Positions 3,314 to 17,687 of a stretch of DNA of 17,812 nt are shown here, one piece after another; position 1 is the stretch's first letter; each line of letters starts with the position of its first letter. The notes under the pieces are model-generated. The model was not told the DNA's origin. It worked only from the letters and a program-made list of their open reading frames with translations, and ran no database searches. The position numbers and the translations under genes were made by a program. The DNA is from Candidatus Asbonarchaeum danakilense. GTDB taxonomy: Archaea > Nanohalarchaeota > Nanosalinia > Nanosalinales > Nanoanaerosalinaceae. The DNA lies in contig JAXINV010000064.1 of the NCBI GenBank assembly GCA_034190465.1, positions 6,440 through 24,251 of the forward strand, in the 5' to 3' direction.

Positions 3314-3316
3314 AGT

Positions 3317-4756
3317 TTAGCCCATGTTCTGCATGAAGTTCCTGAGGGAGGGATGCATCTCCTCCATGTGTTTCTTGACGACCTCCTCGTAGAACTGGAA
3401 GGAGATCATCACAACAAGCAGGATACCCGTCCCGGTACCGAACGAATTGGTGAAGTTGGCGACCGCGGCAACCAGCCCGATGAACGCTCCGCCGAGCACC
3501 GCCAGCGCGGGGATGTACCTGTTCAGAATCTTGACGATGACGCGCTTGTCCTTCCTGAAGCCCGGCACCTTCATCCCGATATCCATGATCTGGTCAGCGA
3601 CCGCGGTCGGGTCCTGGTTCGACGTCTTCATCCAGAACAGCGAGAAGATCGCCGACGCGATGACGTAGAACAGTGTGTAGGTCAGCGCCTGGAGCAGCAT
3701 CGTCGGCGGGATCTGGAGCTGCATCCCGGCGATCGACTGCCAGAGCAGCGTCGGAAGGTTCGACGGAGCGGTGAAGTAGTAGATCAATGTGTTCGCGGCC
3801 GGGGCGCTGTTCGGCGAGTACTGGCCGACCAGGTAGAACGCCTCCTCCATCCATGGCAGGTTGAGTGACAGCTCAATGCCGCGTCGAGCCATCACTGAGC
3901 TCCACAGCCTGAAGTTGGAGGCGATCGCGGACACGAAGATGACAGGGATGACGTTGGTGTACAGGAACTTGAGCGGCCACTTCCGGCCGAACCCGCGGAC
4001 GTTGCCGAAGGTGAGGGGGATCTCCACCCGCATCGACTGGGCGTAAACCCCCACCAGGAACACGACGACGGTGAAGAACAGTCCTGTGATCGTTGCCGGG
4101 GCAAAATGACCGGTCATGAACTGGAGCAGCGCACCTGCCGGGGCGCCTCCGGCTTCAGGACTGAAGAAGAGGACGCCGCCACGTGTGAACGGTGACATAA
4201 GACGGATCATGATCGTCTTCGAGACCCCTCCGAGGATAAACAGGGAGACGCCGGAGTGGAAGCCCCATTTGGACACGATCTCGTCCATGAGGATGATGAA
4301 CCATGCGCCGATCGTCAGCTGCGCGACGACCAGCGGGAACAACGAGGCGCTTGCCGGTTTGACGGCCCCCATGGCAACGAAGGCGAGTGCTTCGAACAGG
4401 CCGAAGGCGTAGGCAAGCAGTTTCTGCGTGCTCTGGAACTTCTGCTTGCCGGGCCCGGAGTTCAGGTCCCAGGGGATGATTTCCGCCCCGACCAGCAGCT
4501 GGAGGATGATCGAGGAGGATACGATAGGACCGATGCCCAGTGTGACCAGCGTGCCGATGCTGGCGCCCAGAATGGTTGAGAACGTCTTGAACTGCTGGAG
4601 CTGCGCAGAAGAAGCCCCGATAACGTAGATCTCGCTCATGACGAAGTAGAGAACGAGGATGAGCCCGGTCCATGTCAGCTTCTCTCTGAAGCCGACGTTA
4701 CGGTTCGGCTTCCTGATCGACGGCAGGAACTGTGCCAGTGTGAGTAGTAGTGACAT
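3317..4756 (-). CDS. secY: Preprotein translocase subunit SecY (Sec61alpha)
   Basis: LGIGPIVSSSIILQLL, SGVSLFI, PLKFLYTNVIP, GTGILL motifs; about 10 TM helices; follows uL15. Confidence 0.98.
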   Translation of the reverse strand: MSLLLTLAQFLPSIRKPNRNVGFREKLTWTGLILVLYFVMSEIYVIGASSAQLQQFKTFSTILGASIGTLVTLGIGPIVSSSIILQLLVGAEIIPWDLNSGPGKQKFQSTQKLLAYAFGLFEALAFVAMGAVKPASASLFPLVVAQLTIGAWFIILMDEIVSKWGFHSGVSLFILGGVSKTIMIRLMSPFTRGGVLFFSPEAGGAPAGALLQFMTGHFAPATITGLFFTVVVFLVGVYAQSMRVEIPLTFGNVRGFGRKWPLKFLYTNVIPVIFVSAIASNFRLWSSVMARRGIELSLNLPWMEEAFYLVGQYSPNSAPAANTLIYYFTAPSNLPTLLWQSIAGMQLQIPPTMLLQALTYTLFYVIASAIFSLFWMKTSNQDPTAVADQIMDIGMKVPGFRKDKRVIVKILNRYIPALAVLGGAFIGLVAAVANFTNSFGTGTGILLVVMISFQFYEEVVKKHMEEMHPSLRNFMQNMG

Positions 4757-4787
4757 CTTCCTCTACGTTCTCCCCGCGCGGGGCTCC

Positions 4788-5228
4788 TTATTCGTCTTCG
4801 AGTTCGATCGCCTCGTTACCGTTGTCGGCGATTTTGTCCTCTGCGCTGGATGAAAACTTGGCTGCCTTGATGTCGATGTCCTTTGTCAGCTTCCCACCGC
4901 CGAGGACCTTGTCGTAACCTGCCTCGTCAGCATCGAATACATAGCTGTCGCCGTCCTTCTCGGCGACCCCTGCTTCGACGAACTGGTCGATACGCTGATC
5001 GATGTCCTTGAGATTGATACCGTTCTGCTCGTTCTGCACGCTGTCCGGCCGCTGGAACCCTTTCTCACCGAGGTACTTGCCGCCTTCCTGAGCGGTCCGC
5101 TTCTTGTGCTTTGCCTTCTTCCCCATGCCGGCCTTACCGCGTCCACCGCGGCTGCCTGCGCCCCTGTTCTTCTTCGAGGAGCCGTGGCCGTGGGTTCCGC
5201 TGCCGCGCTTCTTTTTCTTCTTGCTCAT
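4788..5228 (-). CDS. rpl15: 50S ribosomal protein uL15
   Basis: RGSGTHGHG..KNRGAGSRGGRGKAG, KVLGGG, FSSSAEDKI. Alternative GTG start at 5237. Confidence 0.96.
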   Translation of the reverse strand: MSKKKKKRGSGTHGHGSSKKNRGAGSRGGRGKAGMGKKAKHKKRTAQEGGKYLGEKGFQRPDSVQNEQNGINLKDIDQRIDQFVEAGVAEKDGDSYVFDADEAGYDKVLGGGKLTKDIDIKAAKFSSSAEDKIADNGNEAIELEDE

Positions 5229-5233
5229 GTGTA

Positions 5234-5692
5234 TCACTTCATGCGTGCGAGGAGATCCTGGATCGCGTCACCGCGGTCGCCCAGTGAACCTCCCTGGCTG
5301 TAATGCCGCCTCGTGTCGTTATACCCCTTACTTGGCGGGGTGAGACGGACGACGTTCCGGAAACCGCCCTGTTTGAGGTCGGAAAGTGTGACAGCGCCGT
5401 CGTCAAGTGCCTGGACCAGTTCCTCGACGCTTTCATAGCCGAGTTCGTCGAGACTGTCGGCGAGCGATCCGTGTCGTGTTTCGCCGTGTTCCTCCAGCAG
5501 CTCGGCTGCGAACGATGCATCAACCTGGCCGAAAGTGATGTAGTCCTTCGCCGCGGTCAACATACCCCGGTAGTTGTCGTCCTCAGGGAGGAGCGCGACA
5601 TGGTTCTGCGCTGTCAGCCCGAGCCGTTCCAGGGTCTCCCGGGCGTTCTTCCTGGTGTCGGGTTCGCCTCTGATGCGGATCGCTGCGTACAT
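5234..5692 (-). CDS. rpl30: 50S ribosomal protein uL30 (archaeal long form)
   Basis: MYAAIRIRG, KDYITFG, RLTPPSKG, GGSLGDRG..LLARM. Confidence 0.96.
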   Translation of the reverse strand: MYAAIRIRGEPDTRKNARETLERLGLTAQNHVALLPEDDNYRGMLTAAKDYITFGQVDASFAAELLEEHGETRHGSLADSLDELGYESVEELVQALDDGAVTLSDLKQGGFRNVVRLTPPSKGYNDTRRHYSQGGSLGDRGDAIQDLLARMK

Positions 5693-5695
5693 CTG

Positions 5696-6403
5696 TTACA
5701 CCTTGCCGACGACGAGGCCGGTCTTTTCCTTGATAGAGTCGGTCGTTTTGATCTCGTTCATGTTCTGGAAGGCGTTGAACGTTGCCTTCAACAGGTTCTC
5801 CCGCGTCCTCGTGGTGCCGCGGGATTTGATCCAGAGGTCTTGGATACCAGCGAGGCGCAGCAACTTCTTGACATCATCGGACGCTGCCAGGCCGGTCCCC
5901 TTCGGTGCGGGCTGAAGTTCCACCTCGACGGAGCCTGATTTACCGTCTTGCTTGAACGGGATGGTCGTGGGCTCGGTACCCCGGTCCTCCCAAGAGCCGT
6001 TGCCACGCCGGATCTCTATCATGTTGAGCTTGGCGTTGTCACGGGCCTTGTCGATGGCTTCACGTGTATCATCTGCGTAACCTTCGCCAAGACCGATCAG
6101 GCCGTTACCGTTCCCGATGACGACCATGGCCTTGGTCTTGAAACGACGACCGGATTTGTGCATCCGTACGGTACGCTTGGAGACGATACGTCGTTTGCCC
6201 CCGCCTTTTCCGGGTGTGCCGCCGATGAGGATGACCTCATCGTCCAGGTTGGGGACGAGATGATCGACGATTTCTGGCTCCCTGAGCTTCTTCTCATGGT
6301 TGAGCGCGTCGTGGATATCTGTTATCTTGCCCTGCTTCACCAGCCGACCGAGTTCGGTCGATGGCCGCCATACCTCTTCCTGTTCGTCGTCATCCGCCAT
6401 CAT
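5696..6403 (-). CDS. rps5: 30S ribosomal protein uS5
   Basis: WRPSTELGRLVK, TVRMHKSGRR, PAPKGTGL, LAGIQDLW. Confidence 0.97.
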   Translation of the reverse strand: MMADDDEQEEVWRPSTELGRLVKQGKITDIHDALNHEKKLREPEIVDHLVPNLDDEVILIGGTPGKGGGKRRIVSKRTVRMHKSGRRFKTKAMVVIGNGNGLIGLGEGYADDTREAIDKARDNAKLNMIEIRRGNGSWEDRGTEPTTIPFKQDGKSGSVEVELQPAPKGTGLAASDDVKKLLRLAGIQDLWIKSRGTTRTRENLLKATFNAFQNMNEIKTTDSIKEKTGLVVGKV

Positions 6404-6912
6404 GCTTCACCTATCTTGTCCTTGACCTCTTCGAAGTTTGCTGCAACGTCTGTATCTCTATACTCGTCGATGTGCTCGCCTCTGATACGTCGATCCGGGG
6501 GGAAGATGTCCTCGTCGGCGTTGACGGCAAGCCCTGCGTCGATGAGGCCCTTGACCGCGGCGTAGATCCGTGTGCCGTGCTGATGGTTCTGCAGGCCGAT
6601 ATCGACGACGGCCTCCTCGATCCCTTCTTCCAGGGCACGTGTCCCGGCAAGGTAGCCTGTCAGGTATGCTGCGGGAAGGTTGCCGGTGTGGTGCTCCCAG
6701 CCGTACTCTTCGAGCTGCTTGGAAAACGCGCTGGTGATCGTATCGTCACCTTCCTGCTCGTAGCTGACGAGCTGCACCCGGGCATGGCTGTTACTCCGCC
6801 GGACGACGGCACGCGGCTTCCCGGACTTGAGCATATCAAGCCGCTCTTTGTAGTCTGTCTTCTGCTCACGTCGCCGTCGGTGTGGTACTGTGTAGTCTGG
6901 ACCGTCTGCCAT
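6400..6912 (-). CDS. rpl18: 50S ribosomal protein uL18
   Basis: RRRREQKTDY, GNLPAAYLTG, VKGLIDAGL, RIRGEHI. Confidence 0.97.
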   Translation of the reverse strand: MADGPDYTVPHRRRREQKTDYKERLDMLKSGKPRAVVRRSNSHARVQLVSYEQEGDDTITSAFSKQLEEYGWEHHTGNLPAAYLTGYLAGTRALEEGIEEAVVDIGLQNHQHGTRIYAAVKGLIDAGLAVNADEDIFPPDRRIRGEHIDEYRDTDVAANFEEVKDKIGEA

Positions 6913-6913
6913 A

Positions 6914-7360
6914 TCACTCGCCTCTGATGTTCTTGTCGATGTAGATATTCATGTGTTTCTTGTTCCGGAAGAACCCGCCTTTCGCCATGTTGTACAGCTT
7001 GCGGTACTCGGAGCTGTCGAGTTCGTCCTCGTCCCGCATACGCTTGAGTTCTTTCCGGAGGGCGCGGATGTTCTCCATCCATTCTTCTTTCTCCGACTTG
7101 CGGCCGCCCTTGCTTCCTTGCTTGCTTCCTGCACCCTTGTGGCGGCCTTTCTTCTTCTGCTTATCGCGTTCACGTGCACGGCCTCTGCTGGTGCCGTCCT
7201 TGTCCTTCTTCTGGATGACGCCTGATTCGATCAGGTTCCTGATGTCTTGCTTGGTGATGGCGTCGTGGACCTCATCGGTCCTGTCTGGGTCGATCCAGAC
7301 CCTGCTCTTCCCGACATCAAGGACGTCGGCCGCCATCTTTTTCTGTGATCGCAGGTTCAT
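6914..7360 (-). CDS. rpl19e: 50S ribosomal protein eL19
   Basis: QKKMAADVL.VGKSRVWIDP, AITKQDIR, YRKLYNMAKGG. Confidence 0.97.
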   Translation of the reverse strand: MNLRSQKKMAADVLDVGKSRVWIDPDRTDEVHDAITKQDIRNLIESGVIQKKDKDGTSRGRARERDKQKKKGRHKGAGSKQGSKGGRKSEKEEWMENIRALRKELKRMRDEDELDSSEYRKLYNMAKGGFFRNKKHMNIYIDKNIRGE

Positions 7361-7384
7361 CGTGCATCTCCTTGCTTGAGCATC

Positions 7385-7393
7385 TTTTTTAAA
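7385..7393 (-). promoter_or_regulatory. Internal TATA box for rpl19e
   Basis: TTTAAAAAA begins 33 nt upstream of the rpl19e ATG. Confidence 0.65.
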
Positions 7394-7398
7394 CCTGT

Positions 7399-7575
7399 TC
7401 AGTTGTTACGGAATTCGACGTCGTCGCCCTGCTGGAGGATGATGTACCGGTTGAACACTGCGTCGCAGCTCGGGCAGACGAGTCCGTCTTCTTGCTCCTC
7501 GTTGACACCAAAGCTGCCACAGTTCGGACATTTGTCGTCGTCCGTACGGAAAAATGAGCTCCCTACCATGTTCAT
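7399..7575 (-). CDS. Small CPxC zinc-ribbon protein (58 aa), absent from the ORF track
   Basis: MNMVGSSFFRTDDDKCPNCGSFGVNEEQEDGLVCPSCDAVFNRYIILQQGDDVEFRNN*. ATGA overlap with the rpl32e stop, GGAGG upstream, fills the whole gap. Alternative start at 7569. Confidence 0.85.
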   Translation of the reverse strand: MNMVGSSFFRTDDDKCPNCGSFGVNEEQEDGLVCPSCDAVFNRYIILQQGDDVEFRNN

Positions 7576-7970
7576 TCCTCCTCTTCGTCGTCACGACCGT
7601 CGTTCAGGATGTGGATGCCGAGTTCGTCTGCCTTCTCCAGGATGGCTTCACGCTTCCGACCACCGACATTGGAGGCGATCCGTGCCGCCTCTTCTTCGGG
7701 GTCCAGTTCGTCGAGATCCGCCGGCCTGTGGACGAGGATGTCCTCGTAGCCGGAGGGATGCAGGCCACGCACTGCTTCCGGTGCGCGGTACCCGGGATCG
7801 GGCATGTCCTTGGCGAACTTCTTCTTGAGGCGCACGTTGCTGTGTTTGCCCCGTGCACGTCGCCAGGACTCGGGGACGCGGTTCTGCTTGTGGGAGTTCT
7901 GCCGTGTGAAGTCCTTCTTTTTCTTCTCCCGTTCCCGCATCAGCCGTTCTTTCTCGTTGTCGTCAGTCAT
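7572..7970 (-). CDS. rpl32e: 50S ribosomal protein eL32
   Basis: FTRQNSHK..SWRRARGKHS, GYRAPEAVRGLHPSG, GIHILN. Confidence 0.97.
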   Translation of the reverse strand: MTDDNEKERLMREREKKKKDFTRQNSHKQNRVPESWRRARGKHSNVRLKKKFAKDMPDPGYRAPEAVRGLHPSGYEDILVHRPADLDELDPEEEAARIASNVGGRKREAILEKADELGIHILNDGRDDEEEE

Positions 7971-7972
7971 CG

Positions 7973-8494
7973 TTACTCACCTTTGCTCGTGATGTAGATA
8001 CCGTCCTGGAACTTCCGCGGGTCGCGTGTCCCCTTGTAGCATTCCTGTTCGATCCGTGCCGCGGTCTGTGAGACCTTCTCCTTGTCCGGGCCGGTGACAG
8101 TGATTTCGTCGTCGTTGATCTCGACGCTGACACCGTCCATGATCTCGACGCGCCGGTCGGACCGTTCACCGATGAAGTTCTGGATCACGACCTCGTTCCC
8201 CTCGACCTTGACGGACATGGGGAAGTGGGCGTAGACGGTCTTGAGCTTGTATTCATACGGTTCCTGAACGCCCTCGATCATGTTCTGGAGCTTGGAGCTG
8301 TACGTGCCGACGACCGCCTTGATATCGCGCTTGGTGGCGTCGGTCCGGACGGTGACGGTGTCGTCACCGATCTCGATGGCGACCTGCGGGTGCTCCAGCT
8401 TCTGCCGGATTTCATTGCTGTCGCTCTCGACGACGATGCTGTCGCCGTCCTGGCTGACCGTGATATCATCGGGGATCGTTACCTGTTCTTCCAT
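7973..8494 (-). CDS. rpl6: 50S ribosomal protein uL6
   Basis: YAHFPMSV, NFIGER, DKEKVSQTAARIEQ, RDPRKFQDGIYI. Confidence 0.97.
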   Translation of the reverse strand: MEEQVTIPDDITVSQDGDSIVVESDSNEIRQKLEHPQVAIEIGDDTVTVRTDATKRDIKAVVGTYSSKLQNMIEGVQEPYEYKLKTVYAHFPMSVKVEGNEVVIQNFIGERSDRRVEIMDGVSVEINDDEITVTGPDKEKVSQTAARIEQECYKGTRDPRKFQDGIYITSKGE

Positions 8495-8506
8495 CGTTGA
8501 TACACC

Positions 8507-8896
8507 TCAGTAGACGTAGGCGAGCAGCTTGCCACCGTGACCTTCCTCCTGGGCCTCTTCGTGCGTCATGACGCCCTGGGGCGTGGATACGAGCAGGTTG
8601 CCGAACCCACGCGCGGGAAGGTATCGCTTCTCGTACTTCTGATACCCGTCCTTGGAGACGGAGAACCGGGGTTTGATCGCGTTACAGTCGTTCAACGTCT
8701 TCTTCAGCTCGACCTTGAACTTGCCGGCTCTGCCGTCCTCGATCTGTTCGAACAGACCGATGTAGCCTTCCTGCTGCAAGATCTTGAGGACGTTCTTGAT
8801 CAGGTCGGATGCGGGCTCGACCGTGACTTCCTGCTTGCCAACCTCGCGTCCGTTCCTGATCGTCGAGAGAGCGTCCGCCAGTACGTCCTGTTGCAT
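8507..8896 (-). CDS. rps8: 30S ribosomal protein uS8
   Basis: [43 protein letters not shown]. Confidence 0.98.
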
Positions 8897-8911
8897 CGCT
8901 TATTCCACCTT

Positions 8912-9136
8912 CTAGCTCATCTTTTTAAATCCTAGTTTGGGCGCGATCTCGCGGAAGCACTGCCGACAGTAGTACAGGTCGTACTTCCGGATGATGCCGC
9001 GTCCTCTCCTGCCACAACGACGGCACTTGCGCTTCGCCTTGCCGAAGTCCCTGTCCTTGGGCTTGTTATGCTTCTTGAATCGCTTGACCTTGTTTTTATT
9101 ATGCTTGATCTGCTCCAGTACTCCTTCGTAGCTCAT
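8912..9136 (-). CDS. rps14: 30S ribosomal protein uS14 (zinc-binding)
   Basis: [30 protein letters not shown]. Confidence 0.97.
8922..8929 (-). promoter_or_regulatory. Internal TATA box in the rps14 3' end, upstream of rps8
   Basis: TTTAAAAA begins 33 nt upstream of the rps8 ATG. Confidence 0.55.
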
Positions 9137-9139
9137 AGC

Positions 9140-9652
9140 TTATGCACCCTCGATCTCGGCGCCGAACTGCTCTTGGACAAAGTTTACTGCCTCTTCAGGC
9201 GTGATACGGTGTTCCTTCCCGACATCGCGAGGATCCTCCTTCCGCCGTTTGACCCGGTATCCGGGCCGCTCCAGTGTGACGGCGACCTCGAACCCCCTCA
9301 TGCCGATGTCTGGGTCGTACTCCATACCGGGGACGTTAATGTACTCCTCGACGCCGAACGAGAAGTTACCGTGCTTGTCGAAGTTGCTCATGCTGATGTT
9401 CTCCTCGATCGCGTCGAACATACGGCCGAGGAAGTCGCGGGCCTTCTCACCGCGGATCGTCGTCTTGGCACCGATGTTCAGGCCGTCACGCAGACCGAAG
9501 CCTGTCGAGTTCGGACCTGACTCGGTCCGGACGGCGGTGGAATCAGTCATCCGTTCCAGCAGGTTGACCGCCTTCTCAACATCGTCACCGACCTCGCCGA
9601 TGCCGATGTTGACGGTGACCTTATGGATCTGGATCTGTTCCATCTCGTTCAT
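9140..9652 (-). CDS. rpl5: 50S ribosomal protein uL5
   Basis: KVTVNIGIGE, FDKHGNFSFG, YDPDIG, RPGYRV. Confidence 0.97.
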   Translation of the reverse strand: MNEMEQIQIHKVTVNIGIGEVGDDVEKAVNLLERMTDSTAVRTESGPNSTGFGLRDGLNIGAKTTIRGEKARDFLGRMFDAIEENISMSNFDKHGNFSFGVEEYINVPGMEYDPDIGMRGFEVAVTLERPGYRVKRRKEDPRDVGKEHRITPEEAVNFVQEQFGAEIEGA

Positions 9653-10329
9653 CAGAGCGCCACCTCCGGCTCGTCGTCGCCGACGACGAAGACGTAGTCC
9701 TCGATGGTTTCGAACGTGCCGTCATCGCTCTCCAGAGTGACACGGTTGGCCTGGGAGCCGCGGACGGTCTTGATATCCTGTACTTCCGCGATCTCGCCGA
9801 CGTGCTGGCCGGCGATGATGTATGCCTGGGCGCCTTCCTCGAGCGGCAGTCCGTTGACGATCTCGCCGTCCTTGAGGACGACGCTGCCCCGGGTGTCGTA
9901 GTCCTCCTCGACGATCCGGTTCTCGCCGCCGTCGAGGTTGAGCTGGGTGCGGTCGCCCTTCAGCGTGGTCTTGTCCTCGATCCGCCGGAGCCGCCTGTCG
10001 CCGTCGTCGACCTCCTGGAAGACCAAGCCGTCCTTGTCGACGGTGACGCGGAAGTCCTTGTCAAGCCTGTCGACTGAGATGACGTCCATGAAGCCGACGG
10101 TCCGCTGCGGGTCGGTCTCGACGGTGTTGTTGACGGCAACGTTCCGCGAGCTCAAGATCTGCTGTACCTCCGACAGGTCGTTCGCGTAGCCCAGCACGTC
10201 ACGGAGCAGGACGGCGATCGGGACGCCTTCCTCTTCGCTGTGCGGGCCCTTGCCTGTGATGACGTAGGCCGCGTCCTTCCGTTCGACGGGATAATGCCGC
10301 GGCGCTGAAAGTCGCTTCTGATGTGTCAT
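9652..10329 (-). CDS. rps4e: 30S ribosomal protein eS4
   Basis: HQKRLSAP, GPH, LRDVLGYA, VGFMDVI, QLNLDGG, YVFVVG. Confidence 0.97.
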   Translation of the reverse strand: MTHQKRLSAPRHYPVERKDAAYVITGKGPHSEEEGVPIAVLLRDVLGYANDLSEVQQILSSRNVAVNNTVETDPQRTVGFMDVISVDRLDKDFRVTVDKDGLVFQEVDDGDRRLRRIEDKTTLKGDRTQLNLDGGENRIVEEDYDTRGSVVLKDGEIVNGLPLEEGAQAYIIAGQHVGEIAEVQDIKTVRGSQANRVTLESDDGTFETIEDYVFVVGDDEPEVAL

Positions 10330-10863
10330 TTAGCTATCACCTTTTCCGTCGTCTTCATCTGCTTCCTCGCCGGTTTCGTCCCCGGCGTCGTCTGGGTCCT
10401 CCGCTTCATCGTCGTCCTCTGCATCTTCGTCGCTCGCCTCTGCCTCGTCTTCCTCGTCGGCCGCCTCGATCTCCTGCCTGTCCTCTTCGGAGACCTCGTA
10501 CTTGGCGAGCCGTTCCTCGTCGTCGAGGTCGAGCTTGGTGATCTTGAGGTTGGACGGGTCGATCGGGATCTTGGCGTCGGATGTGTCGACGCGCTCCGTC
10601 TCGACGCCGCTGATGTATACTTTCTTATCCTCGTAGTCGACGTCCTCGACACGGCCGGTCGCGTCCGACCACTCGCCCCGCATGATCTCTGCCTTGTCGC
10701 CTTCGCGGAGGGGGAGGGTCTTGGTCCCGACCCTGTCACGGACATCGTCGGCGAGCCGGGCGGAGAGGAACTTCTTCCGCTGATGGTATGGTGCGTTCTC
10801 CCTGTGCTTCCGCTGCTTGCCCGGCTTCTCTGAGCTCTGCCAGTTCTTGTTCCAGTCGCTCAT
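10330..10863 (-). CDS. rpl24: 50S ribosomal protein uL24 with a long acidic C-terminal tail
   Basis: PGKQRK..NAPYHQR, REGDKAEIMRG, PIDPSNLKITKLDL. Confidence 0.96.
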   Translation of the reverse strand: MSDWNKNWQSSEKPGKQRKHRENAPYHQRKKFLSARLADDVRDRVGTKTLPLREGDKAEIMRGEWSDATGRVEDVDYEDKKVYISGVETERVDTSDAKIPIDPSNLKITKLDLDDEERLAKYEVSEEDRQEIEAADEEDEAEASDEDAEDDDEAEDPDDAGDETGEEADEDDGKGDS

Positions 10864-10873
10864 CCTGTATCAC

Positions 10874-11275
10874 CTATACGACGATCGACGCGATCTTGCC
10901 GACGGGCGCATATCGCTCGACGACCTCTTTCGCGACCACGCCCTTGACCCGGTTGGCCTTGGGCATGTCGGAGTCCTGTTCGAGCAGGACGGCTGCGTTG
11001 TCCTCGAAGCTGACACGCCGCCCGTTCCCGCGCTGGAAGTCCCTCTTCTGCCGGATGATGACGGCGTCGTATGTCTCGCCTTTCATCTCCTGTTCGCCCT
11101 TCATGACCCGGACGGTGATCCGGTCGGAGACGCCACAGGAGTTCCGGCGCTCGCTCGTGTTCTTCTGTGCACGGACGCCGATGACCTTGAGCTTCTTGGC
11201 GCCGGAGTTGTCGGCGCAGTTGAGCGTCGATCCGATCTCAAGGCCGCGTGCAATGTTTGATGTCAGTGCCTTCAT
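10874..11275 (-). CDS. rpl14: 50S ribosomal protein uL14
   Basis: CADNSGAK, AVIIRQ, FEDNAAV, ASIVV. Confidence 0.97.
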   Translation of the reverse strand: MKALTSNIARGLEIGSTLNCADNSGAKKLKVIGVRAQKNTSERRNSCGVSDRITVRVMKGEQEMKGETYDAVIIRQKRDFQRGNGRRVSFEDNAAVLLEQDSDMPKANRVKGVVAKEVVERYAPVGKIASIVV

Positions 11276-11277
11276 CG

Positions 11278-11613
11278 TCACTCAGCCTCGTGCTTCTCGA
11301 CGATGACGAACTTCTTGGTTTTGGAGAGAGGACGACACTCCGCGATCGTGACGGTGTCGCCCTCGTCAGCATTGATACACCCGGGGTTGTGGACGTTGAC
11401 ACGTGTGTTCCGTCGTTCGTACCGTTCATACTTGGGCAGCTTCTCCGCGTACTCCCAGGAGACGACGGCCGTTTTTTCCATCTTTGTGGATTCGACCGTG
11501 CCCTCGAAGGTCCTGCCTCTGACCGGAAGGCTGCCGTGGAACGGACATTCGTCGTCCTCACAGCTTCCTTCGGGATCTGCTACGTCAAGTCCGATGTCTC
11601 GTGCTTCTGCCAT
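11278..11613 (-). CDS. rps17: 30S ribosomal protein uS17
   Basis: IGLDV..CPFHGSLPVRG, KYERYERR, ECRPLSKTK. ATG at 11613 is preceded by a GGTGA SD. Confidence 0.97.
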   Translation of the reverse strand: MAEARDIGLDVADPEGSCEDDECPFHGSLPVRGRTFEGTVESTKMEKTAVVSWEYAEKLPKYERYERRNTRVNVHNPGCINADEGDTVTIAECRPLSKTKKFVIVEKHEAE

Positions 11614-11626
11614 CTTGTTCACCTTG

Positions 11627-11920
11627 TCATGCAACGTACCCCCATTTCCCGGGGAGGTCCTTGCCTATCCGTTCTTCTGGCCGTCCGGCCAACAGTCTTC
11701 CATTGACCCGAACCTTTAAATCCCCAAGGTGGAAGCGGAAGACGCTCTCTTCCTTCGGGATCTGCCGCTCGCCTTGGTCGGTATCCAGGACGAGGGTGTT
11801 CTTCGTTTCGTCGACCACCGTGCCTGTTATCCCCTCACGCGAGGGGTCGGTGGCCTCAACGACCTCCGCCTCGAGCCCGATGAGTTCGTGCCGGGGGAGA
11901 TTGTCGGGTGTCCGTGGCAT
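11627..11920 (-). CDS. rnp1: Ribonuclease P protein component 1 (Rpp29/POP4)
   Basis: HELIGL, GTVVDETKNTL, IPK, G..L.GRPEERI; conserved position before uS17. Confidence 0.95.
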   Translation of the reverse strand: MPRTPDNLPRHELIGLEAEVVEATDPSREGITGTVVDETKNTLVLDTDQGERQIPKEESVFRFHLGDLKVRVNGRLLAGRPEERIGKDLPGKWGYVA

Positions 11921-11923
11921 CGC

Positions 11924-12235
11924 TTATCTGTCGACCTCGATCGATTCCTCGTCGAACCCGAGGTCCTGCAACACGTCCTTGATCCGCCGCCGGTGGTCGC
12001 CCTGGAGCTCGATGGTGCCGTCCTTCGATGTGCCACCGCAGGCGAGCTTGGATTTGAGCTTCGTCTCCAGGTCGTCGATGTCGACCTCCTTGTCGTCCAG
12101 GCCGTCGACGACGGTGACTTTCTTCCCGAAGCTCCGTTCTGTGATACTGACTTCGATCTTTTGGCCTTCTCGTGCGATGCTTTTACACACGCAGATATCT
12201 TTCGGGAGTCCGCACTTGGGACAGGTCTCTGTCAT
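11924..12235 (-). CDS. sui1: Translation initiation factor aIF1 (SUI1/YciH family)
   Basis: CPKCGLPKDICVC, LKSKLACGGT, IELQGDH. Confidence 0.97.
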   Translation of the reverse strand: MTETCPKCGLPKDICVCKSIAREGQKIEVSITERSFGKKVTVVDGLDDKEVDIDDLETKLKSKLACGGTSKDGTIELQGDHRRRIKDVLQDLGFDEESIEVDR

Positions 12236-12432
12236 TGTTCCTCCTGGTTGAGTATTGTCTTGATCCGGGCGATGGTGCGCCTGATCTCCTTGATCCGGCC
12301 GGTGTTCTCGGGGAACCCGCCGATGGCGACCTTGCCCATCTCCTTCGCCCGCTCAAGCTCGAGGTCGTCGAGCTGTTCCTCCAGCTCGCTGCGGGACATG
12401 TTCCGTATCTCGTCGGGTGTGAGGATTGCCAT
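12232..12432 (-). CDS. rpl29: 50S ribosomal protein uL29
   Basis: MAIL..EIRNMS, PENTGRIKEIRRTIARIKTI. Confidence 0.97.
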   Translation of the reverse strand: MAILTPDEIRNMSRSELEEQLDDLELERAKEMGKVAIGGFPENTGRIKEIRRTIARIKTILNQEEQ

Positions 12433-12438
12433 TGTGTA

Positions 12439-13311
12439 TCACTCCATCTGGGATTCGATCCAGCTGACGAGTGTTTTCCTGTCCTTGTTGTCCTGCTCTG
12501 CCTCGAGCAGGGCCTCGTAGTCGACGTCGTCCTCGTCGTCCAGTTCGGCCTTGATGTCCTTGATCGTGTTGGTGACGAGTTCCTCGTAGTCGATGTCGCT
12601 CTCGCTGCCGGAGGACGCCTCGGTCTCGGCCGCTTCGTCGGCCGTCTCTTCGGCCTCCTGTTCCTCGCCGTCCTGTCCTTCGTCCTCGACGACGGGTTCG
12701 GGTTCTTCGTCTTCAACGACGTCCTGACTGACCTGCTGCCGGGTCATGTAGCCTGGCAGCTCTTTCATGATACGGACCTTGACACCGAGTGCGCCGGGCT
12801 GTGTGACTGCTGCCCGGTACGCGGAGTCGACGTACTGTTCCGCGGTGTTGCCGCATTTCTTGACGTATCCCTGTGTGAATTTCTCGCTGCGCCCTCTGCT
12901 GCCTGACAGCTTGCCGGCGATCTCGATCTGGACGCCGACGGCACCGGCATCCATGACACGCCGGGTGTATGTGTTACCGACACGCTTCGGGTGGCCGCCT
13001 TTCTCCAGCCAGCCCTGGATGTTCTTGGCGACGACCTCGGCGTCCAGGTCGGGCTCTTCGACTTCCTGCGCCTCGACCTGTGGGTTCTCGATGCCGAAGT
13101 CGTCCTTCAGCTTGCGTGTCACTTCCTTGATCCGGTGGCCGCCCCGTCCGATGACGAGGCCGGGCTTCTCGGAGTAGATGGTTATCTTCGTCGATGTTGA
13201 GGTCTTGGTGAAGTCGATGTGGCTGTAGTTGGCCTTGTCCAGTTCATCTTCCAGCCACTCGTCGATCTTGACCTTCTTGATGCTGTCCTGCACGAACTGC
13301 TTTTCGATCAT
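12439..13311 (-). CDS. rps3: 30S ribosomal protein uS3 with an acidic linker and an extra C-terminal module
   Basis: KH motif KPGLVIGRGG, GAVGVQIEIAGKL, GVKVRIM. Confidence 0.97.
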   Translation of the reverse strand: MIEKQFVQDSIKKVKIDEWLEDELDKANYSHIDFTKTSTSTKITIYSEKPGLVIGRGGHRIKEVTRKLKDDFGIENPQVEAQEVEEPDLDAEVVAKNIQGWLEKGGHPKRVGNTYTRRVMDAGAVGVQIEIAGKLSGSRGRSEKFTQGYVKKCGNTAEQYVDSAYRAAVTQPGALGVKVRIMKELPGYMTRQQVSQDVVEDEEPEPVVEDEGQDGEEQEAEETADEAAETEASSGSESDIDYEELVTNTIKDIKAELDDEDDVDYEALLEAEQDNKDRKTLVSWIESQME

Positions 13312-13314
13312 TAG

Positions 13315-13728
13315 CTATCGCTCCCGTAGCTTGATGGTGATGTGAGCCGACTTGGGCTCCTCACCTCTGTTACGTTTCGGTGTCGGCTGGGACCTGCCCT
13401 GGTTGGCGTAGAACTCGTGGATGTACAGCTTGTCCGCCGCCAGTCCCTCGTTGATGGCGTTCTGCTCCGCGCTCTCGAGGAGCTGGAGCACTTCCTTGGC
13501 TGACGCGACAGGGTACCGTCCGCTGTCCATGTCACCGCTCTTGTGCGCGAGGTCGGAGTCGTACTTGGTGTACGGTACCGGCTGCTCTTTGTCGATGACA
13601 CGCTGCAGTTTCTCCTTTGCCTCGTCCACAGGGTCGTCGCTGATGAAACGCCCGATCTCCACGCAGTGCTTCCGGGAGACGGAGACGTTGACCCCGCGTG
13701 CCTTTGCTTCCTGTACGCTGTCGGCCAT
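13315..13728 (-). CDS. rpl22: 50S ribosomal protein uL22
   Basis: VSRKHCVEI, GRYPV, AEQNA, final HI..L; conserved position. Confidence 0.95.
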   Translation of the reverse strand: MADSVQEAKARGVNVSVSRKHCVEIGRFISDDPVDEAKEKLQRVIDKEQPVPYTKYDSDLAHKSGDMDSGRYPVASAKEVLQLLESAEQNAINEGLAADKLYIHEFYANQGRSQPTPKRNRGEEPKSAHITIKLRER

Positions 13729-13737
13729 GGTATCACG

Positions 13738-14115
13738 CTACTTGAGTGGGATGAACTTGGAGCTCCGTGTTGCACCCAGTCCGGGTGCGGAGTGCTCCAC
13801 TTCCTTACGGTTTCGTGTGAACTCGCCGAGGTAGTGGCCGATCATCCGCTCCTCGACCTCGACGGTGACGTATTCCTGTCCGTTGTATACCTCGATGGTC
13901 GTCCCGACCATCTCCGGGACGACGATCATGTCACGCTCATGTGTCTTGACGTGATCGTTTTCCCTGACCTTCTGCAGCAGTTTCTTCTGCCTGTCGGTCA
14001 GGCCGCGCTTGATGCTTCGTCGCTGCCGCGCCGGCAACAGCTCTGCGAACTCGTCCATATCCATTTTCTGGAGTTCGTCGAGCGTCTTGCCGCGGTACGT
14101 GAAATCGTTAGCCAT
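13738..14115 (-). CDS. rps19: 30S ribosomal protein uS19
   Basis: [40 protein letters not shown]. Confidence 0.98.
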
Positions 14116-14142
14116 CTTATAAGGCACCCTTCCTTCTCAAGG

Positions 14143-14205
14143 TCACTCAGGTTCCACCGTCGCTCTCGCTCCGGTGCCTGATGTTGTGAATGTTGTTTGT
14201 TCCAT
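14143..14205 (-). other. Candidate 20-aa upstream ORF (MEQTTFTTSGTGARATVEPE)
   Basis: ATG lies 5 nt after the rpl2 stop, behind a strong GGAGGAGTGA SD-like run; in frame with rps19. Confidence 0.4.
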
Positions 14206-14210
14206 GATGT

Positions 14211-14945
14211 TCACTCCTCCTTCTTGCCGGTCCGTGACGCGGCGTTGCTGCCAACCTTCTTGCCGGCAGGCGCGTGCCGCGAGACCGTCTTGGGCTTGCC
14301 TGGTTTGGCGGAACCACCGAACGGGTGGTCGGTCGCGTTCATCGCGACGGCGGACGTCTTCGGGTACAGCTTGCCACGCGCCTTCTCGCGGTGGTGCTTG
14401 TCCCCTGCCTTGCGGAACTCCTTGTCCCGCTTGCCGGCGCCGGCGACCTGTCCGATCGTCGCACGGCAGTCCGGGTTGAACTCCTTGATCTCTTGGGACG
14501 GGAGCTGGACAAGGGTCTTGTCCGCCTCGTGCGTGACGATGAACGCGTACGTGCCGGCGGAACGGGAGATCTTCCCACCGTCACCGGGCTGTAGCTCGAT
14601 ATTGAACACGGGCACGCCCTCAGGGATCTCCCTGAGCGGGAGCGTGTTCCCCTTCTCGAGCGGGGCCTCCCGCGAGATCGTCACTGTATCGCCCTCGGCC
14701 AGTCCTTCCGGCGCGAGGATGTATTCTTTATCATCACTCGATCGAGCGGAATCATCCGATTCCGTCGAGTCTGCAAACTGCACTTCTGCGACGGGCGCTG
14801 TCCGGGCGGGGTCGTGCTCGATGTCGACGACCTCACCTTCCTTCTCGCCCTGCGGGTGCTCGATGTTGCCTTTCCCGCGGTGCGTGTTCGCCTGGTACCG
14901 GTTGCTTCCCTTGCCACGTCGCTGTGTTATGATGCGCTTACCCAT
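14211..14945 (-). CDS. rpl2: 50S ribosomal protein uL2 with an ~11-aa insertion
   Basis: MGKRIITQRRG, HDPARTAP, PGDGGK, MNATDHPFGG, GKKVG..A.RTG. Confidence 0.97.
   Translation of the reverse strand: MGKRIITQRRGKGSNRYQANTHRGKGNIEHPQGEKEGEVVDIEHDPARTAPVAEVQFADSTESDDSARSSDDKEYILAPEGLAEGDTVTISREAPLEKGNTLPLREIPEGVPVFNIELQPGDGGKISRSAGTYAFIVTHEADKTLVQLPSQEIKEFNPDCRATIGQVAGAGKRDKEFRKAGDKHHREKARGKLYPKTSAVAMNATDHPFGGSAKPGKPKTVSRHAPAGKKVGSNAASRTGKKEE
14736..14770. repeat. Palindromic element inserted in frame in rpl2
   Basis: ACTCGA-[TCGAG]-CGGAATC-ATCC-GATTCCG-TCGAGT hairpin; resembles 193-227. Confidence 0.7.
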
Positions 14946-14956
14946 TGCTACTCACC

Positions 14957-15223
14957 TTACAGCATGCCGAGCTGTGTGGCGACGTCCAGTGCCTCGTAGT
15001 CCGGTGTGAGGCGGACGTACGCTTTCTTCTCGCCATCCTGTGTTACCTGTGTGTTTACGTTATCGACACCGACGTCGAACAGGTTCTCGACCGCGCCCTG
15101 GATTTGCGGCTTGTTCGCCCGTTCGTCGACGATGAAGACGAGGGTGTTGTCCTCGTCCACCTTGCCGACGGACTTCTCCGTCAGGTGCGGGTGCTTGATG
15201 ATATCCCAGTCTCGCTTATCCAT
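14957..15223 (-). CDS. rpl23: 50S ribosomal protein uL23
   Basis: HPHLTEK, NTLVFIVD, KKAYVRL. Confidence 0.97.
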   Translation of the reverse strand: MDKRDWDIIKHPHLTEKSVGKVDEDNTLVFIVDERANKPQIQGAVENLFDVGVDNVNTQVTQDGEKKAYVRLTPDYEALDVATQLGML

Positions 15224-16034
15224 TGAAGATACCCTCTTCGTCGAGTCGTCCGATGGCGTTTTCCGTCCAGACCGTCAGCCGGCCGACGTCCGTCCCTGGC
15301 GCGAGCAGCGCTGCGTTGAGCTGATCGACCTGGACAACGTCGACACCGGGCAGGTTCCGGGCTGCCTGCTGGATGCCGTCGTCCTCGCCGACGACGATCA
15401 GCGGACCGCGGCTCCTGCGGTACTTCCGACCTCGTGACTTCCCGCGGCCGGCCCTGACGGACGCCTCACGGCACCGTTCCAGGTCGGCCTCGAGCCCGAG
15501 GTTGACGAGGACCTCACGGACCTCGCTGGTCTTCTCCAGCCCCTCGAGCTTGTCGTCGACGATGATCGGGAGTTCGAGGTCTTCGTCGAACTCGTGGCCG
15601 CGTTCCCGGACCTTCGTCGGGTCGGCGGTCGCGGCGATGGCTGCACGGATGGCCTTGCGCCGTTCCTTGTCATTGATATCCTTGGTGAAGTCCTTCTCTG
15701 CCTTCGGCGGATGCGCCTTGCGGCCGCTGACTGTCTGCGGTGCCTCGCCACCGGGACCGCTCATCTGCATCCCGCGTCGGAAGGTGATCTTCCGCGGTGT
15801 GCGGGAGGACGGGTAGCTTTTGCCCCGCCGGGAGCGGTAGGCGCGGTTACGCTGCTTCCACTCGGTCACGTGCTTGAGGCCTGCCCGCCTGTCTGCGCCG
15901 TAGGGCTGCCGCTGCTTGGACTGTGTGGACTCCACGGCGCGCTTGATGATGTCCTGTCTGACGCGTTCCGTGAACTGTACAGGGAGGCCGATCTCGCCTC
16001 CGTCGTCGCCGGTGGTGTCGTGTACTGTTGCCAT
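15216..16034 (-). CDS. rpl4: 50S ribosomal protein uL4
   Basis: GRKAHPPK, INDKERRKA, RAGRGKSRGRKY, LLAPG..GRLTVWT. Confidence 0.97.
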   Translation of the reverse strand: MATVHDTTGDDGGEIGLPVQFTERVRQDIIKRAVESTQSKQRQPYGADRRAGLKHVTEWKQRNRAYRSRRGKSYPSSRTPRKITFRRGMQMSGPGGEAPQTVSGRKAHPPKAEKDFTKDINDKERRKAIRAAIAATADPTKVRERGHEFDEDLELPIIVDDKLEGLEKTSEVREVLVNLGLEADLERCREASVRAGRGKSRGRKYRRSRGPLIVVGEDDGIQQAARNLPGVDVVQVDQLNAALLAPGTDVGRLTVWTENAIGRLDEEGIFNG

Positions 16035-16039
16035 CGCTC

Positions 16040-17008
16040 TTACCTCTCAATGTGCGTTATTTCGGGGTTTGACGGGTATCCGTCCTTCCGGACTGCGCCC
16101 CTTAACATTATTAACCTTTGCGAGGGGCCGGGGACGGAGCCTTTGACGAGGATGTAGTCGTTCCTGATCTCCCCGTAGTTCGTGAAGCCGCCCTCAGGGT
16201 TGATATCCTCCGGTTCGCCGCCGATCTGGAGCAGACGCTTGTTCTGCTCCGTCCTGCGGACGTTGCCGGACTGACCGGCCTGCGGTGCCCGCCACGAGGT
16301 GTGGTCGGGATGCCACGGGCCGAGGTTGCCGGCTTTCCGCGAGATCTTCTGTGCCTTGCGGCCGAGCGGCTTGACGCCGTGTCGCTCGACGGGGCCTTCG
16401 ATACCTTTGCCCTTCGTGATGCCGATGACGTCGAGGTACTGGCCGTCCTCGAAGACATCGGAGATGCTGACCTCGCCGCCGAGCTTGTCCTGTGCGTATT
16501 CATACTGGTCCTCGACGCTGCCGCCGACCGGGAGTTCGAAGACCTCCGGCTTCTTCTTGTTGTTCGTGGTCTCGCCCGGTGTGGCGTGAACGAGGAGCTT
16601 GATATCTGTCAGGTCGTCGAGGTGCTCTTCCGCCTCCTCGAGATTGTGATCGTGGTCGTCCGGCGTGTTGATGGCTCGTTCGAGGTCGTTGTCCAAGTCA
16701 TCGGCGAGGATGTCGGTGAAGACCTCCTTGCCGTCCAGTCCTTCCTGGTAGAGGCGGACGCCGTGGACCTTGAGTGGCGGGCATTCGAGTACTGTTACCG
16801 CGTCAGCGACTTCCTGTCCCTTGGATGTGGAGTTCTGCCTGTCTTCGATGCGCAGGACGCGTGTCATGCCTGCCTTGTACGCTGCGAATCCTAGCGGTTT
16901 TGCTTCTCCTTCGTCCTTGACGGTGTCAAGTGTCGGGTAGGGCCGCTGTGCTCGTTTCTGGGGTTTGTACCCCAGTGAACCTCGTCGTGGATGTCTTTTT
17001 CTTGCCAT
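16040..17008 (-). CDS. rpl3: 50S ribosomal protein uL3
   Basis: PRRGSLG, YKAGMT, TKGKG..GPV, GPWHP, KGSVPGP. ATG at 17008 has a GAGGTG SD. Confidence 0.98.
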   Translation of the reverse strand: MARKRHPRRGSLGYKPQKRAQRPYPTLDTVKDEGEAKPLGFAAYKAGMTRVLRIEDRQNSTSKGQEVADAVTVLECPPLKVHGVRLYQEGLDGKEVFTDILADDLDNDLERAINTPDDHDHNLEEAEEHLDDLTDIKLLVHATPGETTNNKKKPEVFELPVGGSVEDQYEYAQDKLGGEVSISDVFEDGQYLDVIGITKGKGIEGPVERHGVKPLGRKAQKISRKAGNLGPWHPDHTSWRAPQAGQSGNVRRTEQNKRLLQIGGEPEDINPEGGFTNYGEIRNDYILVKGSVPGPSQRLIMLRGAVRKDGYPSNPEITHIER

Positions 17009-17118
17009 TCGTCGCACCTCGTGGGGGCAGCGTGGAGGATACGCTCCTCTGGTTGCCCTGGTTTCAGTCCTGACAGAGGCCTCGCATGAGGCGTGTACGC
17101 CCAGAATCCTGGACGTAC
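17009..17118 (-). promoter_or_regulatory. Structured 5' leader of the S10-spc operon (candidate r-protein autoregulatory RNA)
   Basis: Hairpins at 17095-17118, 17079-17092 and 17029-17045, and a CCTCTG/CAGAGG stem (17046-17079), between the TATA box and the rpl3 SD. Confidence 0.6.
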
Positions 17119-17199: not shown

Positions 17200-17667
17200 T
17201 CAGTTGTTCTCCATGTCGGGGACCGGTGATGCGGTCTCCTCCTTGTAGGTGTCCATGATGATCTGCGTGCTGGCGTTCTTGACGAGGTCGTTGTGGGTAT
17301 CGAGCAGGTCGTCCTTGACGAACTCCGACATGTCGTTTTTGTCCTCGAACTTGCCGATGATAAGGATGTCTGTCTTGCCGGTGACGCGGTACATGGACGC
17401 GATGTTGGGGTGGTCTTCCAGCCGCTCCCGTAGCTCCGACCGTTCGCCGTGGAGCTTGAGCTCGATCTTGGCGGAGAGGTCGTAGCCGATCTTGTCGTGG
17501 TCGAGTTTGATTGTGTAGTTCTTGATGACGCCCTCGTCCTTCATGCGATTGATGCGGTTGGTCACTGTAACTGGGGTGGTGTCGATGGAATCCGCTATCT
17601 CTCTGTAGGGCTTTCTGCCGTCTTCTGACAGGTGTGTCAGGATCTTTCTGTCTAGTTCGTCGAGCAT
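17200..17667 (-). CDS. Lrp/AsnC family transcriptional regulator
   Basis: LDELDRKIL..L..DGR.PYREIA HTH, GVIKNY, RAM domain YRVTGKTD. ATG at 17667 has a GGAGG SD. Confidence 0.95.
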   Translation of the reverse strand: MLDELDRKILTHLSEDGRKPYREIADSIDTTPVTVTNRINRMKDEGVIKNYTIKLDHDKIGYDLSAKIELKLHGERSELRERLEDHPNIASMYRVTGKTDILIIGKFEDKNDMSEFVKDDLLDTHNDLVKNASTQIIMDTYKEETASPVPDMENN

Positions 17668-17687
17668 CGTTCGCTGCCTCCACATCC

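Follow-up and report, generated by a model that had tools for sequence, protein, structure and literature searches.

What is a hairpin-forming sequence of 33 nt, with a close relative beside a tRNA gene, doing inside the reading frame of an essential ribosomal protein? The question is raised by the uL2 (rpl2p) gene of Candidatus Asbonarchaeum danakilense, which lies in a 17,812-nt stretch of contig JAXINV010000064.1 (hereafter the window) from a nanohaloarchaeal genome of 1.2 Mb and 61% G+C that is 92% complete. Positions 2552–17017 of the window hold an ordinary S10–spc ribosomal protein cluster on the minus strand, flanked by ORFs that we named by eye as NUDIX-like (1068–1538), pseudouridine synthase-like (1529–2506) and Lrp/AsnC-like (17200–17685). 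A preliminary description of the window had proposed that the insert belongs to a dispersed family of short palindromic repeats that enters both tRNA loci and essential ORFs. Here we show that such a family exists, redefine its unit, and consider how it may move.

Results

The uL2 insert is half of a double-hairpin element

Around the insert the uL2 protein reads VQFAD-STESDDSARSS-DDKEY. That about 11 residues are extra and hairpin-encoded, as the preliminary description held, was borne out by the homologues, 102 of 120 of which have the standard loop, 11 residues shorter (the loop pattern was mis-anchored in two of the 120), and by alignment with the solved archaeal L2 1s72_A, in which an 11-residue gap stands opposite the insert. 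Among the named relatives of this uL2 are nanohaloarchaeal proteins. The insert, first placed at 14738–14769, extends one base further to the left, to 14737, and so measures 33 nt (Table 1). Folding of the hairpin gave z = −3.1/−4.0, and the insert is present with one difference in a second assembly (X2, 14200–14830), whose run possibly represents the same sample. The loop holds other inserts, of 26, 12, 14 and 6 residues, in P0018, P0086, P0111, P0015–P0017, P0021 and P0031, whose hosts are another nanohaloarchaeal family and haloarchaea-like sequences; it appears to be a general insertion hot spot.

Table 1. Features of the uL2 and tRNA-Ser loci and of an invaded IS605; positions refer to the window unless another locus is named.
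Feature	Position	Strand	Basis
tRNA-Ser(TGA) gene, anticodon-loop intron of ~50 nt	1–137	−	
Inverted, imperfect repeat of the tRNA 5′ end, lying between the intact tRNA and the element	154–165	−	
Full-length 62-nt double-hairpin copy, same element family as the uL2 insert	166–227	−	
Second copy (15 nt) of the tRNA-Ser 5′ end; stops in the D-arm, at the left end of the element	228–242	−	
uL2 (rpl2p) host gene, 244 aa	14211–14945	−	ORF reading, homologue search, alignment to 1s72_A
Half element in uL2: CTCGA + hairpin 1 + CTCGATCGAG; adds STESDDSARSS in frame; lacks hairpin 2	14737–14769	−	
Central 10-bp palindrome CTCGATCGAG, dyad axis of the full element	14737–14746	not assigned	
Hairpin 1 of the uL2 copy: 7-bp stem, 4-nt loop at 14754–14757	14747–14764	not assigned	
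Target-side flank GTTTGCAGA of the uL2 copy; agrees with the loose consensus GTTCRRNGA^Y seen at further insertion sites	14770–14778	−	
Inserts in the IS605 ends of G055	L097, 1345–1405 and 2911–2970		

The arms of the uL2 hairpin aligned with 193–227 at 14 of 16 and 10 of 12 identical positions, with a compensatory G-C/A-T change, exactly as first reported. The relative at tRNA-Ser is of the same family, but it is a full 62-nt double hairpin rather than a single leader hairpin. The adjoining tRNA-Ser(TGA) gene is overlooked by ARAGORN at default settings, and ARAGORN at low threshold returned noise. Alignment of 21 seed copies of 51–62 nt gave the layout of the full element as CTCG – hairpin 1 (YGAAATC...GATTTCR) – CTCGATCGAG – hairpin 2 – GAG; full units overall measure 50–63 nt, with a mode of 54. 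The element is a palindrome of palindromes, in which two bulged hairpins stand in inverted order around CTCGATCGAG and are closed by CTC...GAG, and the uL2 insert is the left half of this ∼54-nt dyad, ending at the central palindrome. What had been taken for the repeat unit is palindromic and dispersed, as claimed; the unit itself is the double hairpin, of which uL2 keeps one half, and its copy number per genome is low.

Pairing in the 21 seeds was conserved through covariation: 89% of cells were paired, with 37 double changes, a result reached by none of 500 shuffles and far above every slid control, in a seed set that includes kin and is hence statistically dependent. One-sided G-U changes were few in both hairpins, as expected of palindromes that matter at the level of DNA. 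A second subfamily, with the centre CTCGA(C/G)TCGA and different ends, was also seen (L140, L118, L120, L151, L148, L150, L157 and L162), several of its copies inside tRNA introns.

The likeness between the two hairpins of the window could in principle be fortuitous, a low-complexity expansion of the uL2 loop having come to resemble an unrelated terminator-like hairpin. The exact two-arm pattern put forward at the outset matches just twice in the genome, TCGA and GAG words are common at 61% G+C, and the loop takes other inserts. Nevertheless, a covariance model built from the 21 seeds, which include the tRNA-Ser copy and leave out the uL2 copy, scored the uL2 copy at E = 2.6e-10 in the genome; pattern searches of relatives turned up near-identical 33-mers in two other families, within the reading frames of pheT and merA; and the two-arm pattern was absent from 10 dinucleotide-shuffled genomes. 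On this score, from a model built without the uL2 copy, the 33-mers and the shuffled-genome null we reject chance likeness, to which we attach almost no probability.

The element is patchily distributed in Nanohaloarchaeota

The covariance model, looser than the exact pattern, recovered six loci in the genome: the uL2 copy, one in an intron of tRNA-Arg, one each at the 5′ ends of tRNA-Ser and tRNA-Cys, one downstream of another tRNA and one intergenic. Four of the six thus adjoin or enter tRNA genes and one is in an essential ORF, in agreement with the proposed dispersed family. A profile search that included the window copies returned the identical six loci, and the reversed genome gave nothing under E 7.

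In a survey of 70 genomes of the phylum, with 79 candidates scored per genome, at least 27 genomes matched the model at E 0.05, at least 20 of them at E < 1e-5 (seed genomes included). Copy number was patchy: G003 gave 37 matches and G027 28, both strands counted, and six genomes from the family to which the window belongs had none among the matches listed. Per genome there are up to some 20 loci, mostly fewer than 10. Detailed study concerned 83 distinct loci from 82 sources, a part of the phylum matches, 52 of them full length.

Beyond the phylum, the exact pattern matched 26 times in the GTDB collection, from which near genomes had been left out: one nanohaloarchaeal record, 25 bacterial records and none in Halobacteria. 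We judged the 25 bacterial matches to be due to chance; 16 of them encode the LDEIxEIPL motif of sigma-54 activators, and two that scored weakly with the covariance model, on hairpin 1 only, were left uncounted. A metagenome scan gave one match, a full copy adjoining a tRNA. Viral contigs gave no match with three patterns, BLAST against plasmids and phages gave no significant match, and a search of 50% protein clusters added nothing. In five haloarchaeal plasmids (2.76 Mb) the best match had E 0.0065, and the seven of eight matches inspected were all without the element's architecture.

Eight copies at tRNA genes adjoin duplicated gene ends

Among 63 non-ORF loci, 11 lie inside called tRNA introns, 10 adjoin tRNA genes and 42 were left unplaced by that test, five of these 42 adjoining duplicated tRNA 5′ ends; for comparison, 2% of the genome lies near a T-arm motif. 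Long, hairpin-rich introns occur in many tRNAs of the window's genome. In eight cases, that of the window among them, the element has a 13–20 nt repeat of a tRNA 5′ end on one side and the intact gene on the other, and an inverted copy of that end lies in between. This arrangement suggests insertion into the D-arm, the gene being rebuilt downstream. In four of the eight, as in the ORF copy L066 (12-nt duplicate), hairpin 2 is itself made of inverted and direct target copies.

A comparable arrangement was noted at the other end of tRNA genes. At tRNA loci C5, C9, C18 and C21 of G000, the T-arm/3′ end of several tRNA genes recurs twice downstream of the gene, first inverted and then direct, with other small hairpins, apparently of further families, lying between. 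These copies look like the fold-back duplication seen at tRNA 5′ ends.

ORF copies keep the frame and share a loose target

In addition to uL2, 17 of the 52 full-length copies lie in frame in 12 genes: msrB (five copies), pheT (two) and those for NreA, a lamin-tail protein, MerA, a metallophosphoesterase, a Hel308-like helicase, a DEAD-box helicase, ValRS, ArgRS, Elp3 and S24e. All 17 are 54 or 57 nt long, while only 14 of the 35 copies elsewhere have lengths that are multiples of three; the test is partly circular, because an out-of-frame copy would have been classed as non-coding. All are free of stops, both orientations occur, and 16 of the 17 are in a register that gives Ser/Asp/Glu-rich peptides.

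Insertion is precise. The flanks of 43 of the 52 full copies show no target overlap at all, and an overlap of ≥3 nt was found in three. A purine precedes the insertion point in 48 of 52 copies and a pyrimidine follows it in 41, although the bias at −2 to +2 is in part circular, two flank bases on each side being included in the model. At −7 a T was present in 35 of 52 (28 of 41 once nested and related copies were dropped, p 2e-9), giving the loose consensus GTTCRRNGA^Y. The left flanks matched the element's 3′ end at 4.8 of 11 positions, against 3.6 ± 0.2 at random positions. Guide-like matching of an element to its own target was weak and inconsistent, with p 0.16 over 41 copies and p 0.003 over 14 ORF copies in a post hoc comparison that used the best-matching of the five msrB copies. 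Reconstructed empty sites showed no hairpin enrichment for the 17 ORF sites and p 0.07 for the 35 others.

Filled and empty sites differ precisely

The empty uL2 sites expected in close relatives were found in P0004, P0089 and a contig of run X5. P0003, with a 19-residue insert, and P0004, which is empty, are 97.0% identical; P0036, with an 18-residue insert and from a different family, and P0089, again empty, are 97.9% identical. Judged from protein alone, the P0003 and P0036 peptides appear to correspond to translated full units, of which the DEAD-box copy is an example. In the metagenome contig of run X5, which has 20 differences over 520 nt, 19 nt stand here in place of 52, exactly 33 nt fewer; this evidence is one contig with 46 letters on the short side, the contigs of X3 and X4 not spanning the site. 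The two filled uL2 groups are 60% identical, and their grouping as a single clade was rejected (AU p 5e-42; 25 rows, loop removed). The uL2 gene of G001 carries a decayed 27-nt form that has lost the hairpin and kept the frame. Neither of two outcomes that the preliminary description had set against its proposal, a lack of further genomic copies and an insert conserved in the protein without the palindrome, was encountered.

Recurrence at a single codon is also evident in msrB, where five filled alleles fall in two families with elements 81–96% identical in genes 62–70% identical. A single clade of filled alleles was rejected (AU p 0.002; five filled and the 30 best-scoring empty alleles), synonymous flanks diverge right up to the element junctions, and hairpin 2 of the copies stays constant irrespective of the codons around it. 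The element was present in eight of 120 MsrB protein clusters, a search whose insert-bearing query biases it towards filled alleles. In P0132 MsrB, a second 18-residue insert is nested in the hairpin-1 loop of the element. In pheT, two different copies occupy the same codon in opposite orientation in two of six family-f4 alleles, and the site is empty in 21 of 21 family-f3 alleles, where the local sequence differs (30 loci surveyed, three not reaching the site).

The congeners G055 and G056 share an IS605 (∼90% identical) that is free of inserts in G056; in G055 its two near-terminal hairpins hold inserts of 56 and 57 nt. The left insert is a diverged relative, barely scored by the model (E 0.19). 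These G055 copies are invaders of the IS ends, not the own ends of a transposase gene. The tnpA of the G056 sister copy contains two stops.

The insert is very likely translated

No bulge-helix-bulge was found at the junctions, none of the 18 ORF cases reaching 4/3/3 pairing in any register from −3 to +3. The strict keeping of frame, together with this lack of a splice motif, indicates that the uL2 insert peptide is very likely translated and not spliced. In an AlphaFold model of uL2, of low confidence as a whole (pLDDT 57), residues 60–70 have pLDDT < 50 and form a turn between strands 52–57 and 73–77. The insert may be close to neutral, and Ser/Asp/Glu-rich additions would suit the proteome of a halophile.

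Discussion

We regard the existence of the family, its structure, the precise difference between filled and empty sites, the recurrence at single codons and the preservation of frame as secure. On balance, the uL2 insert is probably a half copy of a very small, non-autonomous mobile element of Nanohaloarchaeota. Such an element would insert precisely and without target duplication at a purine^pyrimidine step, usually after a GTTC-like motif, and would persist at sites that can bear it: within tRNA introns, at the 5′ ends of tRNAs whose gene is rebuilt downstream, in the end hairpins of IS605, and in reading frames if the copy measures 54 or 57 nt and lies in a surface loop. The uL2 copy would then have lost hairpin 2, probably by deletion between repeated CGAG motifs, leaving 33 nt and the frame intact.

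How the element moves is a matter on which the evidence pulls in more than one direction. IS200/IS605 ends and REPINs are marked by bulged hairpins, a lack of target duplication and loss without a scar (PMC3116915, PMC3119063); with the taste for IS605 ends, these traits suggest single-strand HUH chemistry, which has been argued for REPINs (PMC3116915). The mechanism that we favour, at slightly less than even odds, is movement as single-stranded DNA that an IS200/IS605-type HUH transposase (TnpA), supplied in trans and only transiently present, cuts and rejoins. The HUH, RAYT or IS200-type transposase that the preliminary description suggested looking for is missing from the window's genome, in which we found no TnpA, TnpB or reverse transcriptase. 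TnpA occurs in four of the 70 phylum genomes, all IS200/IS605-like; the element is in three of these four and in at least 24 of the 66 that have no TnpA, numbers too small to be informative, and at the Y1 loci of the phylum no transposase gene has copies of the element as its ends. IS110 was found in none of the 70 genomes, and nor was IS91 Y2, for which the controls were silent as well. A tyrosine integrase is present in three of five element-rich genomes, with no link to the element shown.

The inverted and direct target copies at eight tRNA sites are not predicted by peel-and-paste transposition and favour template switching. On that account the element spreads without a dedicated transposase: its hairpins arise where forks or R-loops expose single strands, and host enzymes copy them into new sites through template switching or microhomology-primed repair, a process that also makes inverted-plus-direct target copies, so that hairpin 2 may at times derive from the target. 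Besides the eight tRNA copies, and the five in which hairpin 2 consists of such target copies (four at tRNA sites and L066), the resemblance of left flanks to the element's 3′ end and the rarity among carriers of a transposase of the tested families fit it. The lack of target overlap in 43 of 52 copies, the precise ends and tight lengths, the constancy of hairpin 2 in msrB and the weak match of elements to their own targets speak against it, and we consider it unlikely, though a serious contender. A third possibility is a 54-nt enzyme-less homing micro-element, whose subfamilies return to one codon in alleles 60–70% identical (msrB, uL2, pheT), its own hairpin arms choosing the targets. Homing of this kind would draw on replication or repair enzymes of the host, or on a transposase that the haloarchaeal host cell supplies, and the same process would rebuild tRNA 5′ ends and disable IS605 ends; we think it decidedly doubtful.

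We weighed two further explanations. The element could act at the level of RNA, with the tRNA splicing endonuclease removing it from transcripts, or with reverse splicing carrying it out of tRNA introns to other sites, and a normal uL2 protein as the outcome. Its frequency in and beside tRNA genes (11 and 10 of 63 non-ORF loci, against the 2% of the genome near a T-arm motif) would suit this, as would the many intron-bearing tRNAs of the lineage (PMC10266531). However, bulge-helix-bulge motifs are lacking in 18 of 18 ORF cases, splicing would not require the ORF copies to be in frame and stop-free, both orientations occur in ORFs, the tRNA copies sit within introns and are not introns themselves, the G001 uL2 copy has no hairpin and is still in frame, and the genome has no reverse transcriptase. 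We consider an RNA-level element very improbable. Still less probable, in our estimate, are old insertions, inherited vertically or moved with genes or gene patches and lost repeatedly, the element being dead or kept for a protein or DNA function. It is true that msrB-type copies were seen at the msrB site only, that the msrB trees are short and weakly resolved, and that change counts on a tree cannot separate gain from loss. Nevertheless, a single clade was rejected for uL2 and msrB, no synonymous sites are shared beside the msrB junctions, one pheT codon holds opposite orientations, and alleles 96–98% identical are polymorphic; precise loss on repeated occasions would in turn call for a mechanism of excision. 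Gain and precise loss look alike on a tree, and each requires a mechanism.

The movement of coding palindromes and of SMR-A elements is open, that of SMR-A being called enigmatic in its description (PMC3119063). To this question the nanohaloarchaeal family, in our reading probably mobile, adds exact ends, a target consensus and filled and empty alleles at 96–98% identity; it also offers recurrent single-codon sites, candidate TnpA proteins in relatives and cultivable co-cultures. Given exact ends, a consensus, candidate TnpA proteins and co-cultures, a test in vitro or in Haloferax would be direct. In streamlined DPANN genomes, most of which have no transposases, the family links peptide-adding repeats, the expansion of tRNA introns and flanks, and attack on IS605 ends, phenomena that are as a rule considered separately. 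It is also a warning that an indel shared between marker proteins, uL2 for one, may be homoplastic.

Comparison with known systems

We found no published description of the element in Nanohaloarchaeota, in a literature coverage that excludes most subscription journals, and none stands in the available portion of the report on tRNA introns of the lineage (PMC10266531). Two classes were discarded on structure: an archaeal BHB intron, with the motif in none of 18 ORF cases, and a classical MITE, since most copies have no target duplication. Like the very small cyanobacterial SDRs, the element is a mobile repeat with preferred target sites (Elhai 2008, as cited in PMC5861425). It differs from them in domain, sequence and structure. 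SDR5 of cyanobacteria reportedly targets HIP1.

With REPINs the element shares an inverted doublet of short palindromes as the replicating unit, singlets that look like remnants and a proposed single-strand HUH chemistry, whereas REPINs are extragenic, run into the hundreds and stand beside a resident RAYT (PMC3116915). A REPIN/RAYT system was rejected, as the window's genome has no Y1 and none of the four of 70 genomes with a Y1 has it flanked by the repeats as its own ends. The 52-bp terminal-only PATEs and IS605 core deletions are alike in size, in having two hairpins and in the lack of target duplication (PMC3119063). Unlike them, the element has inverted CTC...GAG ends and dyad symmetry, and it invades IS605 ends instead of matching them; the empty sister IS has other end hairpins and the model is silent in five of six Y1 loci, and a terminal-only element was rejected.

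RPEs, of 105–150 bp, and the coding palindromes of Rickettsia, Wolbachia and Methanocaldococcus jannaschii (PMC10969869, PMC2996958, PMC3184786) resemble the element in placing in-frame palindromes in unrelated housekeeping genes (here uL2 and 12 others) in a host-dependent organism of small genome; the added peptides of those systems lie in unstructured segments, and those of the element may do so. In contrast, as far as those accounts extend, ORF copies here are 54–57 nt (33 in uL2) with a double-hairpin dyad, one codon is hit again in distant lineages, and the ORF copies share their element with tRNA and IS605 targets. Membership of an RPE family was rejected on size and homology: units are 33–63 nt, and the GTDB exact-pattern scan gave no genuine bacterial copy.

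The closest parallel is SMR-A of Haloquadratum walsbyi (HqIRS42/43/55), elements of ∼110 bp with up to 54 copies per genome and a mobiliser described as unknown (PMC3119063). Both are transposase-free, have inverted ends unrelated to known transposons (here CTC(G)...(C)GAG and the dyad of 21 seeds, with six Y1 loci compared), leave no target duplication (43 of 52 copies; precise in G055/G056) and insert into the near-terminal palindromes of IS605/PATE-type elements, in our data in a single IS; habitat and host group are the same. They differ in size (50–63 nt against ∼110 bp) and number (some 20 loci at most per genome), and IS605 ends are a minor target here (two inserts in one IS), tRNA genes and in-frame ORF sites being dominant, neither of which is given as an SMR-A target in the text consulted. 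The comparison with SMR-A is one of published characters (PMC3119063). With the size limits of SMR-A and RPEs exceeded downwards, and the RAYT, PATE and BHB tests failed, we file the element in none of these classes. In its manner of working, as this analysis suggests, it is like Haloquadratum SMR-A and the RPEs, at half their size or less and with their targets combined.
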